NCBI GenBank assembly: GCA_041305025.1
Contig: JBFYMG010000053.1
Location: 308 to 64,307 of the forward strand
Direction of reading: 5' to 3'
DNA: 64,000 nucleotides
From: Thermoplasmatales archaeon
GTDB lineage: Archaea > Thermoplasmatota > E2 > DHVEG-1
A program made the translations under genes and the position numbers. The notes beneath the pieces are model-generated. The model was given only the letters and a program-made list of their open reading frames with translations, ran no database searches and was not told the origin of the DNA. This document shows, one piece after another, positions 3,792-5,985 of the stretch; the stretch's first letter is position 1, and every line of letters starts with the position of its first letter.

Positions 3792-4301
3792 TTAATTAAT
3801 ATAAGGATTAGTACTCGACCGATCAAATCCTTGAACAAGTTCGATTGCTGGAAATTCATTTTGTGGTAACCATCCATAAACAGGATACACAAGATTTGGG
3901 AAGAACTGCTTTATATCGGTAGATAACTTGGTGACCGCGTGTTTTTCACCAAAATTTTCCTTGCTGATTTCATACGTCTTCTGCCGTGTAATTTGTTCAT
4001 CAAGAAATCCAAGTGAGTGGATATATTCATGAAGCAAGACATGAAACAAATAGGACTTAAGCAACTTAGAGTTCGTCTCAGTAATACGCCGAATTGGGGT
4101 TTTATTCACAACAATTATATTGGATGCTACTGGATAGTAGGCACCGATGAATCCATCAAGAGATGAGCCAAGTTCTTGCAACCCCAACATCAAGCCAGCC
4201 CTTGATCGCCCTTCACTCTTTCGAACAGCTTCTTTTACAATTTCAAAAACATCTATTAAATCTTGTTTAATATCGATTTTACAAACATTATTTTCATCCA
4301 T
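3792..4301 (-). CDS. Small putative zinc metallopeptidase (HEXXHXXGXXD motif)
   Basis: 169 aa with no signal peptide. It has a single HEYIHSLGFLD motif matching the metzincin-like HEXXHXXGXXD pattern. No other recognisable domain. Confidence 0.45.
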   Translation of the reverse strand: MDENNVCKIDIKQDLIDVFEIVKEAVRKSEGRSRAGLMLGLQELGSSLDGFIGAYYPVASNIIVVNKTPIRRITETNSKLLKSYLFHVLLHEYIHSLGFLDEQITRQKTYEISKENFGEKHAVTKLSTDIKQFFPNLVYPVYGWLPQNEFPAIELVQGFDRSSTNPYIN

Positions 4302-4402
4302 TATATAATATATAGTTAACGATTGTTAATAATCTTTTCTATAAAAATAAAAAAAAGGTTTGCAAAACATGGTTTTTACTTTTTGACATTCTGACACGAC
4401 AG

Positions 4403-4411
4403 ATATATATA
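4403..4411 (+). promoter_or_regulatory. TATA-like box upstream of the candidate ncRNA
   Basis: ATATATATA lies 24 nt upstream of the first base of the long helix at 4435, which matches archaeal TATA-to-TSS spacing. Confidence 0.4.
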
Positions 4412-4434
4412 GTATCAGTGACAAATAGTATCAT

Positions 4435-4545
4435 GCTTAGAGAGGGACGATTTGGGGGTGTTTGGCATCTGCCGGCGTCCTCTTTAGTGGGTGACTGGGG
4501 GGCATTTGGTGCCCGCCGGGTACTCTCTCTAGGCGGTGTTTTTTT
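4435..4545 (+). ncRNA. Unclassified GC-rich structured RNA (about 105 nt) with a poly-T terminator
   Basis: A GC-rich island in AT-rich intergenic DNA. A 12-bp closing helix pairs 4435-4446 (GCUUAGAGAGGG) with 4523-4534 (CUCUCUCUAGGC). It includes G-U pairs that would be C-A mismatches on the other strand. Internal hairpin GGGCA-UUUGG-UGCCC. CCGGCG (4472-4477) can pair with CGCCGG (4514-4519). The element ends in T7 (4539-4545). Confidence 0.55.
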
Positions 4546-4602
4546 AAAATAATTTTATCCATATCAAAAGAGTTTTAAGACACTGAAAAGATTAACTGCT
4601 GG

Positions 4603-5985
4603 ATGTTGGATGCAAGACTCGCTGTTGAAATAATATTCTTAGTCTCGTGCACCGTCACAATCTATCTTATCCTTAGGAGGCCTTATTTGTACATAAGGCT
4701 GGGCATACGCAAGATAAAGATGGATACCTATTTTCTTGGCGCATTGCTTGGACCGGTTTTGATTGTAATTTTTGGTATCTTGAACTATTCACAGCTCCTA
4801 GGGGGATTTGAGGGAAAAGGCGGCCTCAATCCATTCGGTGTTCTGGTTCTTTTTCTATCGATGGTTTTTATGAGCATATTTCTTGATATCACCGGATTCT
4901 TTGAATATTGTGCTCGTCTTGCGTTGAAATTTGCCGGTACCGATGGTAGGAAACTCTATTTCTCATTATATATCGTCGTTTCAATACTTACGATATTTAC
5001 GTCTAATGATATCATTATACTAACGTTTACTCCTTTCATTTATTACTTCTCAAAAAATGCAGGAATAGACCCAAAGCCATATCTTATAGCCGAGTTCTTT
5101 GCAGCAAATACATGGAGCATGATGCTTTACATAGGCAATCCAACAAACATCTTGCTTGCATCAGCATTCGACCTACGTTTTGATCAATACTTCAAATGGA
5201 TGTTTTTGCCTGCAATCGTTGCTGGATTTACTAGCATGGCGCTGTTGTATGTTCTCTTCAGAAGTAAGATAAACCAGCCAATTAAACACCAAAAAACCAT
5301 AAAACCTTTAGAAGCAATCACCGATAAACCAAGCGCCATTCTAGGGCTTTTAATTCTTGGTGGGTGTATCGTTGCATTAGCGATTGCTCCTTATTTCGGA
5401 ATTGAAATGTGGCTCGTTTCACTTGGGTTTGCACTTGCCCTTCTTGCGATTTTGGCGCTACGCGATTCGTTCGTCTCTTTAATCAGAAAACATATTGAAA
5501 AGAAGCATTTTACTATCGCGCCTACTCTGAAAAAGATGCCGGTGGGCATTATTCCTTTCGTTTTGGCATTGTTTGTAACAGTTGAAGCTCTAAGAATCTA
5601 CGGAATAACAGAAGATATCGGCATATTTTTCAAAAATATCTGCGGCAGTTCAAATACTGCATATGTTTTTGTCTACGGAACATCCTCTGCCTTTTCTGCC
5701 AACATACTGAACAATATCCCTATGACAGTTGCCTATGTCCCTATCACTAGCGCCGTTGCACAGCCACATATTTTACCTTCAGTTCTTGCAACAGCAGTTG
5801 GCTCAAATCTTGGTGCAAATATTACGCCAATTGGTGCATTGGCAGGAATCATGTGGATGAGCATACTACGTGATAAAAATGTGAAGATATCATTCAAAGA
5901 ATTTGTAAAATGCGGGTTAATAGTTACACCAATAACTCTTGTAGCATGTTTGGGTGTGCTTGCACTCGAATTCATGATCTTTTGA
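4603..5985 (+). CDS. ArsB/NhaD-superfamily anion or ion permease
   Basis: 460 aa polytopic membrane protein. The IGNPTNILLASAF motif is typical of ArsB/citrate-transporter-like permeases. The true start may be the internal Met at residue 40. Confidence 0.75.
   Translation: MLDARLAVEIIFLVSCTVTIYLILRRPYLYIRLGIRKIKMDTYFLGALLGPVLIVIFGILNYSQLLGGFEGKGGLNPFGVLVLFLSMVFMSIFLDITGFFEYCARLALKFAGTDGRKLYFSLYIVVSILTIFTSNDIIILTFTPFIYYFSKNAGIDPKPYLIAEFFAANTWSMMLYIGNPTNILLASAFDLRFDQYFKWMFLPAIVAGFTSMALLYVLFRSKINQPIKHQKTIKPLEAITDKPSAILGLLILGGCIVALAIAPYFGIEMWLVSLGFALALLAILALRDSFVSLIRKHIEKKHFTIAPTLKKMPVGIIPFVLALFVTVEALRIYGITEDIGIFFKNICGSSNTAYVFVYGTSSAFSANILNNIPMTVAYVPITSAVAQPHILPSVLATAVGSNLGANITPIGALAGIMWMSILRDKNVKISFKEFVKCGLIVTPITLVACLGVLALEFMIF

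Follow-up and report, generated by a model that had tools for sequence, protein, structure and literature searches.

A free-standing small-RNA gene with two UUUGG-tipped hairpins in Thermoprofundales archaea and a candidate Sm-like protein partner

Upstream of a permease gene in the genome of a Thermoplasmatales archaeon (assembly GCA_041305025.1, contig JBFYMG010000053.1) lies a short structured element that raises two questions: is it an RNA gene in its own right or the leader of the permease mRNA, and what might such an RNA do? The stretch of this contig that was analyzed comprises 64,000 nucleotides and is called the window throughout. A first-pass annotation, made from the letters alone, had described the element as an orphan RNA with its own promoter and terminator and had named both a stand-alone small RNA and a riboswitch-like leader as possible identities.

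The element encodes a structured RNA of about 104 nt on the plus strand of the window and has its own TATA box and T7 stop (Table 1). Folding of the plus strand yielded -51.5 kcal/mol as compared to a shuffle mean of -38.3 kcal/mol (z = -3.6); none of 200 shuffles folded as well, and the minus strand reached only -29.7 kcal/mol. The annotated closing helix P1 is present with its full 12 bp, including two G-U pairs (U4437-G4532 and G4445-U4524) which are valid on the plus strand only. The internal hairpin GGGCA-UUUGG-UGCCC was recovered as well, at positions 4500-4514. Furthermore, the first arm, P2, is likewise tipped by UUUGG, a feature overlooked in the annotation. With both arms ending in the same loop, the window RNA is therefore an internal duplication. 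The TATA-like box 24 nt upstream and the directly following T7 run were found as described, and the permease ORF downstream, starting at 4603, indeed matches CitMHS/ArsB. The description of the element as G+C-rich within an AT-rich spacer holds for the window copy, with a local GC content of 0.47-0.55 in the block and 0.17-0.33 in the spacer around it. Members of the RNA family have GC contents between 0.34 and 0.70; hence, GC-richness is not a family trait.

Table 1. Positions of the RNA, its structural parts and its transcription signals in the window.
Feature	Position	Strand	Sequence, basis or remark
Upstream promoter element	4383-4396	+	TTGACATTCTGACA; family consensus ttGACaTTTTg.CA, about -52 to -39; before nearly all members
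TATA box	4403-4411	+	ATATATATA; family consensus TTTAWATA; ends 24 nt before G4435 (23 nt between)
Proximal promoter box	4419-4434	+	TGACAAATAGTATCAT; ends at predicted start site CAT/G
RNA, about 104 nt	4435-4538	+	Fold z-score; covariance model R2 score 83 bits; 5' end predicted at G4435, 3' end within or before the T run
P1 closing helix, 5' strand	4435-4446	+	GCUUAGAGAGGG; pairs with 4523-4534; 11 of 11 modelled P1 pairs with compensatory double changes (43 distinct sequences)
P1 closing helix, 3' strand	4523-4534	+	CUCUCUCUAGGC; covariation
P2 hairpin arm	4447-4481	+	Apical stem GGGUG/CAUCU closes UUUGG loop 4461-4465; fold and covariation
P3 hairpin arm	4489-4522	+	Core CUGG-G-GGGCA-UUUGG-UGCCC-G-CCGG 4495-4519; loop 4505-4509; fold and covariation
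17-nt module inside P3	4501-4517	+	GGCATTTGGTGCCCGCC; module pattern match at G000:C53:4808-4824 is the same site
T7 run, oligo-T archaeal terminator	4539-4545	+	Sequence

The earlier statement that the element matches no known RNA family was examined with Rfam 15. No match at gathering score was obtained in the whole window, and the region 4300-4650 gave chance-level matches only, with E-values above 3. Fifteen diverse members of the RNA family were searched in the same way, and nothing was found at the RNA at E-values up to 0.1. A sub-threshold snoR120 match lies upstream of the window RNA, at 4343-4399, and a snoR12 match lies elsewhere in L031. A tRNA or split tRNA was ruled out by ARAGORN, which detected no tRNA gene in the window; the sole feature shared with a tRNA is the UUUGG pentamer of the tRNA-Gln anticodon loop. 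With respect to box C/D and H/ACA RNAs, neither UGAUGA nor CUGA nor a 3' ACA occurs within the 104 nt, and the RNA itself has no match to a guide-RNA family in Rfam.

A divergent 5S rRNA was considered because of the size, the junction and a missing 5S gene: RF00001 was not found in the window's own genome, which is 73% complete, and 5S rRNA resembles the window RNA in size, in its three-way junction and in having its ends paired with each other. However, the window RNA has no RF00001 match, and the conserved loops of the two are unrelated. In addition, another genome, G014, carries a normal 5S gene (76 bits) elsewhere alongside a homologue of the RNA, and the idea was therefore rejected. In the literature, we found neither a description of this RNA family nor one of Thermoprofundales RNA biology.

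A BLAST-level search identified one full-length homologue, the RNA of G014, with 70% identity; the promoter is also kept there and a different gene lies behind it. A first covariance model was built from the window and G014 sequences and gave single full-length matches in 30 of the 108 genomes belonging to the same taxonomic family. A second model, R2, comprised 26 members with the structure specified by hand. R2 was positive for 74 genomes out of the 197 in the class. Each of these is from the window's own family, in which 74 of 108 genomes and 29 of 40 genera carry the RNA, whereas none of the 89 class genomes outside the family was matched. Usually one copy was present per genome, sometimes two or three. 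Even laxer filters did not reveal the RNA in sister families or in several genera of the family itself.

Additionally, 185,579 species genomes were searched with a pattern for the two loops. This search returned 43 stretches, of which 32 lie in metagenome-assembled genomes (MAGs) of Thermoplasmatota, including SM1-50, SG8-52-3, M11B2D and 3300003432D, which are Thermoprofundales / MBG-D genomes (PMC6461988). The remaining stretches, about 11 in bacteria, correspond to a chance-level number, show no R2 match and were discarded. The same pattern gave 109 stretches in metagenomes; 80 were taken as loci, and 55 of these were confirmed by R2 at a score of at least 40 bits. Three metagenome matches with 25.7 bits turned out to be a tandem repeat and were set aside as chance or unrelated. 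Viral contigs contained no match to the two-loop pattern. Altogether, the family comprises about 80 distinct sequences. It is a new and well-supported RNA family, uncatalogued in Rfam 15 and restricted to one family-level lineage, Thermoprofundales / MBG-D (Thermoplasmatota).

The fold of the family is a three-way junction formed by the closing helix P1 and two long irregular hairpins, P2 and P3. P1 joins the 5' and 3' ends by 9-12 bp and is variable, with a sequence that differs between genera. At the tip of each hairpin lies a module consisting of two G-C pairs, a bulged purine or a 1x1 mismatch, and a 5-bp stem closed by A-U with a UUUGG pentaloop; in AT-rich members it reads GG-R-GAUA-UUUGG-UAUC-U-A-CC. 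The covariation analysis suggested in the annotation was carried out with 43 distinct sequences and supports this fold. Pairing was observed in 92.4% of cells as compared to 71.4% in column shuffles, none of 500 shuffles being as high, and controls with slid partners reached 34-54%. Double-sided changes occur in 23 of the 26 pairs, and in the apical stem of P2 all five pairs covary, with 96.7% of cells paired. The alignment had been fitted to the model and is hence biased towards the structure; nonetheless, the slid controls and independent single-sequence folds agree with it.

Nearly all copies have A-U as the pair next to the loop, and G-C is found in P2 of the window RNA and in P3 of the G014 RNA. 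This swap identifies it as a real pair, and the loop thus consists of five bases. In most members the two loops are 41-45 nt apart. Variants with one, two or three modules exist; L045 and L058 contain three, and the one-module variant has a length of 58 nt. As loop variants, UUUAG, UUAGG and UUUGA were seen, and in one genome (G105) both loops have jointly changed to UUUAG. The UUUGG loops are the sole strongly conserved single-stranded bases, and the modules and their spacing are the only conserved features. The mutually exclusive pairings previously described, GGACG (4445-4449) with CGUCC (4476-4480) versus CCGGCG (4472-4477) with CGCCGG (4514-4519), are both present in the window sequence, but neither G014 nor the family consensus has the latter. 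The comparison therefore gives no support to a switch.

Nearly every member is preceded by the same promoter architecture, ttGACaTTTTg.CA - N6 - TTTAWATA - N7-9 - TGACAAAgAgTAwCAT/G, with the slash at the predicted start. A TATA-like box was found between -40 and -18 in 78 of 79 distinct members, a TGAYA box in 62, and a run of at least five T within 25 nt of the 3' end in 60. The TGAYA box also occurs at about 10 other promoters of the window's own genome, including that of p74, a label coined in this analysis for a lineage-specific protein of about 70 aa. Similarly, the upstream element also precedes p74 genes and a few genes for secreted proteins. Whether the TGACA-box promoter might be a strong promoter in general was examined by a pattern scan of three complete genomes; only 2-3 convincing sites were obtained in each, and for the loose pattern the controls gave numbers of similar size. 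As read from the DNA, these signals fit an archaeal RNA which would start at the first base of P1, about 24 nt past the TATA box, and would end just past P1 at the oligo-T run.

The annotation had considered that the element might be a terminator-type leader or riboswitch of the ArsB/NhaD-type permease. An ArsB-type permease follows the window copy alone. Neighbours in other genera include a PyrE-like gene and genes for a peptidase C25, an MFS protein, Alba, HflX, a CDP-alcohol phosphatidyltransferase, an Lhr helicase and PGK, and no consistent position before one functional class of genes was found across the genera compared. A same-strand gene lies within 200 nt downstream in about half of the genera, and in six genera the next gene is convergent at a distance of 3-120 nt. 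A permease leader or riboswitch was rejected on account of the varied neighbours, the convergent genes and the non-conserved alternative pairing, and the comparison argues for a stand-alone sRNA, since neighbours differ between genera and are often convergent. The other identity that had been proposed, an sRNA with its own promoter and terminator, agrees with the lack of an Rfam match, the TATA box in 78 of 79 members, the T run in 60 of 79 and the covariation. The window element is, by its sequence features, a free-standing small-RNA gene.

Two recurrent arrangements were observed among the neighbours. Alba is divergent to the RNA in three genomes, and a convergent cluster encoding a 94-aa protein, an HTH protein and GlnA adjoins the RNA in four genera. 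A conserved neighbour as the partner of the RNA was rejected: in the window's genome the cluster is located on another contig (C9), and its placement next to the RNA was therefore treated as local synteny only.

The occurrence of the hairpin module outside the RNA was analyzed in the 108 family genomes. The 17-nt module GRYATTTGGTRYCYRCC gave 39 exact matches as compared to one for the reversed control. Nearly all of them are located at sites also called by R2 as these RNAs; exceptions are a divergent twin-hairpin copy (G012:C31) and a weak orphan hairpin (G001:C3). Six of the eight single-module sites are 5' leaders of p74 genes, in which an RNA-type promoter is followed by P1 with one module, UUUUAGAAGG and, 16-20 nt on, the ATG. 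When loop variants were counted, the module was present at 8-9 of about 45 inspected stand-alone p74 genes from six genera. No regulon of other mRNAs carrying the module was found, as the scan of the 108 genomes gave these RNAs and p74 leaders. Sites of the form RYATTTGGTRY occur in the window's own genome at chance level only, and the p74 gene of this genome (G000:C16:25892-26098) has a promoter like that of the RNA, but a leader without the hairpin. A "YUGGYU hairpin" considered for further p74 paralogues with long leaders was discarded: the conserved stretch is a small ORF (..VDNWLYYIEILQRN..) which varies at synonymous positions.

The p74 protein family is tiny, with 100 clusters among 1.84 billion representatives. 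No match was found in Pfam, NCBIfam or PDB sequences, and none to CsrA. The AF2 model of p74 (pLDDT 90.9) consists of an N-terminal helix and five strands, for which an Sm/Hfq-like fold is predicted. Foldseek returned many Hfq structures, Gemin6/7 and the LSm domain of Edc3, at weak E-values of 7e-3 at best, and M. jannaschii Hfq aligns to the model with an rmsd of 1.5 A over 56 aa, also at a weak E-value. The top match, with E = 7e-3, is the N-terminal domain of GatD (1zq1_A). No sequence or profile similarity was detected between p74 and LSM proteins, including the two canonical ones encoded in the window's genome at C84:14338-14526 and C55:3754-3951. The small beta-barrel fold serves non-RNA functions too, as in SH3 and Tudor domains.

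Furthermore, a p74 domain forms the first ~75 residues of archaellins of 290-310 aa in the window's family and a sister family, where it is located before the class-III signal peptide. In the RNA-rich genus g19, mostly the archaellin-fused p74 domain only is present. The RNA occurs in 28 of 38 genomes with a stand-alone p74 as compared to 74 of 108 genomes overall; co-occurrence is therefore uninformative.

The module also resembles binding sites of Sm-type proteins. Classical Sm sites are single-stranded. Their consensus is PuAU4-6GPu (PMC3710371), and for SmAP2 of S. solfataricus the motif GGAUGGAUAUUAGGAAAUG was experimentally defined, with GGAUGGAUAUUAGGUACUGGG as a natural site (PMC5587771). 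The SmAP2 motif GGAUGGAUAUUAGG... and the 1742-RBM ...GGAUAUUAGGUAC... (PMC5587771) agree with the module GGAUAUUUGGUAUC at 9 of 10 positions. This resemblance, likewise 9 of 10 positions for GGAUAUUUGG and GGAUAUUAGG, was noticed after the fact; the L039 variant GGGUAUUAGGUAC agrees at 12 of 13 positions. Sm/LSm/Hfq-RNA complexes have in common with the present case a stem-flanked A-UUU-GG motif and, as candidate partner, a protein with a predicted Sm/Hfq-like fold. In contrast to an Sm-type site, the AUUUGG of the module contains three U only, is preceded by a pyrimidine and is sited in a closed pentaloop, and p74 is devoid of LSM sequence similarity.

We propose that the two identical UUUGG hairpins probably dock a small Sm-like protein rather than sense a ligand for a transporter. 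As conservation is confined to the modules and their spacing, the RNA would present two identical docking sites to an RNA-binding protein and would act as a decoy, buffer or scaffold, neither pairing with mRNAs nor sensing a ligand. This protein-binding reading is suggested by the resemblance of the module to protein-recognition hairpins and by its sole other home, the p74 leader, which has the same promoter. Hence, p74 would be the best candidate for the partner, and the canonical SmAP proteins are the alternative. The mRNAs of several p74 paralogues contain one leader module, which suggests autoregulation: p74 would control its own synthesis via this module, and the twin-hairpin RNA could titrate the protein in the manner of Csr/Rsm systems. 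While the gene, its fold, the family and the distribution of the module are shown by the sequences, we infer protein binding, the identity of the partner, the titration logic and the direction of regulation. Weighing against p74, the hairpin is found at only the small share of stand-alone p74 genes given above and not at that of the window's own genome. The imperfect co-occurrence of RNA and p74, the weak E-values of the fold matches and the closed loop around the motif are further caveats. Taken as a whole, a stand-alone RNA gene that serves as protein-docking decoy, buffer or scaffold, with p74 as best candidate partner and a titratable autoregulation, is our preferred yet tentative explanation, to which we assign slightly less than an even chance.

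Known systems provide parallels for such a logic. CsrB, RsmY and RsmZ are sRNAs which titrate CsrA, and in Bacillus CsrA is part of a circuit with FliW and flagellin. The RNA described here is likewise a small RNA of repeated hairpins all bearing one short loop motif, in this case one to three UUUGG loops; the motif occurs also in a 5' leader, here that of the candidate binder's own mRNA; and the candidate protein is beta-rich with about 70 aa. A link to motility filaments as in the CsrA-FliW-flagellin circuit is given by the fusion of p74 domains to archaellins. The differences are a UUUGG instead of a GGA loop, one to three instead of many sites, the archaeal host and the lack of a CsrA homologue, with binding and titration being putative here.

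The IRE/IRP system, the MS2 operator and the U1A 3'-UTR represent autoregulatory hairpins for protein binding, in which an apical loop is carried by a stem of roughly 5 bp with a bulge. The module shares with them the conserved loop, the 5-bp upper stem, the bulge or mismatch and the lower stem, as well as a copy in the mRNA leader of the protein that would bind it. However, sequences and proteins are unrelated, and an extra free-standing RNA with two sites exists here. By analogy, the proposed logic resembles that of protein-titrating sRNAs and of Sm-RNA complexes; none of their defining features was found by homology.

Four other explanations were weighed against the docking of a protein. 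The RNA could be an antisense sRNA whose UUUGG loops serve as seeds for duplexes, kissing or linear, at CCAAA or YUAAA sites. Targets might be mRNA leaders, tRNA T-loops or CCA ends, UGGU being a T-box-type complement of ACCA. The loops are indeed the only strongly conserved single-stranded bases, and a shared target would agree with the joint change to UUUAG seen in one genome, as YUAAA pairs with both versions. However, five nucleotides confer very low specificity, and no extended complementarity is conserved. At the predicted start codons of the window's genome neither CCAAA nor ACCAAAU is enriched, CCAAA ranking fourth among ten 5-mers of the same composition and the 7-mer at the median, which is a weak test. 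Furthermore, hairpins recognized by proteins typically have a bulge and invariant G-C pairs below the loop, as is the case here. We therefore regard base-pairing as unlikely.

The second explanation dispenses with a function in trans. Promoter and 5' stem-loop would form a mobile or duplicated cassette that stabilizes expression by blocking 5' exonucleases, or attenuates it, and the apparent sRNAs would be cassettes followed by a terminator. Consistent with this, the promoter and a P1-type 5' end (GCUUAGAGAG...) are common to the sRNAs and several p74 mRNAs, and in about one of two genera a same-strand gene lies at most 200 nt downstream. Such a cassette leaves unexplained the near-invariant UUUGG, the duplicated module and the fixed spacing of the loops, as well as the strong T runs, behind which the next gene is convergent in six genera. 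Both as a mobile unit and in its presumed action we consider it improbable.

Thirdly, the hairpins could mimic the anticodon stem-loop of tRNA-Gln(UUG) and thereby decoy or regulate an enzyme reading U33-U34-U35-G36-G37, for example GluRS, a modification enzyme of U34 or G37, or an anticodon nuclease. UUUGG corresponds to positions 33-37 in the loop CUUUGGA of the tRNA-Gln(UUG) of the window's genome and to no other tRNA there. The best Foldseek match of p74 belongs to GatDE, the tRNA-Gln amidotransferase, and the glnA cluster adjoins the RNA in four genera. However, the loop is flanked by a Watson-Crick pair that covaries (A-U to G-C), leaving a loop of 5 nt and not the 7 nt of an anticodon loop, and the variants UUUAG, UUAGG and UUUGA fit no tRNA-Gln. 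The Foldseek E-value of 7e-3 is weak, and GatDE, to our knowledge, does not read the anticodon, which also counts against a mimic. A tRNA mimic, whichever of these enzymes it might address, is thus very improbable.

Finally, a ligand sensor in which the two identical hairpin loops meet around a small molecule or ion, in the style of guanidine-II (mini-ykkC), and which might control the permease downstream in the window through read-through, would agree with the identical conserved loops, their constrained spacing and the same-strand transporter gene behind the window copy, but can hardly be reconciled with the lack of a conserved class of downstream genes, the convergent genes in six genera, the P1 and T run that leave no conserved alternative structure (CCGGCG/CGCCGG being specific to the window) and the variants with one and three hairpins. 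The sensor and the stabilizing cassette explain fewer features than does the docking of a protein.

If p74 is indeed the docked protein, the RNA could, as a rather distant prospect, be the buffer of an archaeal counterpart to the bacterial CsrA-FliW-flagellin homeostasis circuit. Every archaellin of the order would be made with a ~75-aa pro-domain of Sm fold before the class-III signal peptide, and cleavage upon export would free this domain into the cytoplasm. The freed domain, or free-standing p74 paralogues, would bind the UUUGG hairpins of the p74 leaders and the sRNA, and thereby the export of filament or surface proteins would be coupled to gene expression.

In bacteria, the titration of proteins by sRNAs is a major principle of regulation, and we know of no such sRNA established in archaea. 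The circuit outlined above, if true, would constitute a new RNA-protein regulatory system, and the RNA would be the first sRNA of the sponge type to be described in Archaea. In marine and estuarine sediments, Thermoprofundales (MBG-D), which are uncultured, belong to the most widespread archaea (PMC6461988). The present finding supplies a testable candidate partner for the RNA, a lineage-specific mini-protein of predicted Sm fold that is also fused to archaellins. With a 20-nt hairpin and a 70-aa protein the system is small, and it lends itself to tests conducted entirely in vitro or in a heterologous host, for which no culture of the organisms is required.

The permease gene downstream of the twin-hairpin sRNA probably has a TATA-like box of its own, TTTAAAATAA, which lies directly 3' of the T7 run. 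Furthermore, translation of this CitMHS/ArsB-type protein probably starts at a TTG codon near position 4686 instead of the ATG codon at 4603, given that residue 45 is the first one covered by the Pfam match. The TTG codon is found about 7 nt after a GGAGG motif.

Variant forms of the RNA carry three hairpins or a single one. In genus g9, a three-hairpin form with a total length of about 148 nt was identified; its third hairpin (AUUUGGU or UUUAG) and an extra stem are located inside a longer closing helix P1 (GAUAUGUGA.../...UCACACAUAUC). Genus g25 harbors free-standing, single-hairpin mini versions which possess their own TATA box and lack a downstream p74 gene, and an orphan hairpin of 30 nt, CCCUUGGAGAUAUUUGGUAUCUACCAGGGG, was found at one further locus. 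Matches to the loop pattern in three marine metagenome contigs (L156, L172, and L189) were rejected as chance matches; they belong to (GGTACCCCGGAGGCATTT)n, an 18-nt unit repeated in tandem that has no relation to the RNA family.

A conserved gene cluster encoding an uncharacterized 94-aa protein, for which Pfam returned no match, an ArsR-type HTH protein, and glutamine synthetase is oriented convergently to the sRNA in four genera. The distance between cluster and sRNA 3' ends ranges from a 9-nt overlap to a spacing of 51 nt, and in three of these four genera an Alba gene is located divergently upstream. In the genome to which the window belongs (G000), the cluster is present on a contig other than that of the sRNA.

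A second class of genes coding for p74, the lineage-specific protein with a predicted Sm/Hfq-like fold, is preceded by a conserved small ORF encoding a basic peptide of about 35–45 aa with the motif ..(V/L)DNWLY(Y/R)I(E/N)(I/L/M)LQRN... The end of this ORF reaches into the p74 start, and variation occurs at synonymous positions. The ORF looks like an unannotated micro-protein gene co-transcribed with p74.

A domain homologous to p74 was also found in the archaellins of this order, where about 75 N-terminal residues precede the class-III signal peptide and the hydrophobic core; the Pfam Arch_flagellin match is confined to residues 85–289. Within families f1 and f2, the majority of genomes have reading frames of about 290–310 aa encoding the same archaellin type, and many genomes contain two such genes in tandem. 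To our knowledge, no other archaellin has such a pro-domain. Archaellin mRNAs contain a conserved leader hairpin of their own, with a stem based on CCAUGG or CCACGG and followed by GAAACGAAAGGAAGG; the archaellin promoter carries a TTGCGAACA box at the place of the TGACAAA box of the sRNA.

Locations of the features described (C, contig; L, extracted locus; G, genome)
Feature	Location
TATA-like box, probably of the permease	window 4542-4552
GGAGG and TTG, probable permease start	window 4672-4690
Three-hairpin RNAs	L045:1496-1643, L058 (G088, G087)
Single-hairpin mini RNAs	L120 (G024:C55), L121 (G070:C367)
Orphan 30-nt hairpin	L264 (G001:C3:127730)
Cluster convergent to sRNA	L038, L049, L057, L058
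Cluster, G000	C9:3264-4746
p74 paralogues with upstream small ORF	L296, L297, L302, L303, L313, L323, L127, L129, L131, L136, L142
Archaellin with p74-like domain	L141:1492-2406 (G098:C14)
Archaellin leader hairpins	L147, L149, L151, L153, L146, L148, L152
Shared promoter, G000	C16:25842+, C18:7847-, C38:20042+, C54:31984-, C57:2632-, C65:658-, C79:6137+, C79:7103+, C84:5026+, window 4383-4434

About ten promoters of G000 have the common architecture ttGACATTTT..CA-N6-TTTAWATA-N7-9-TGACA.A..TAwCAT, in which the TATA box is flanked by TGTCA and TGACA half-sites. Besides the sRNA and p74, they drive genes for a signal-peptidase-like protein, for secreted and pilin-like proteins, and for an HTH protein of the ArsR type. 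Complete relatives have only two to three convincing sites per genome. A dedicated transcription factor could control these promoters as a small regulon; alternatively, they could represent the strongest promoter type of the lineage.
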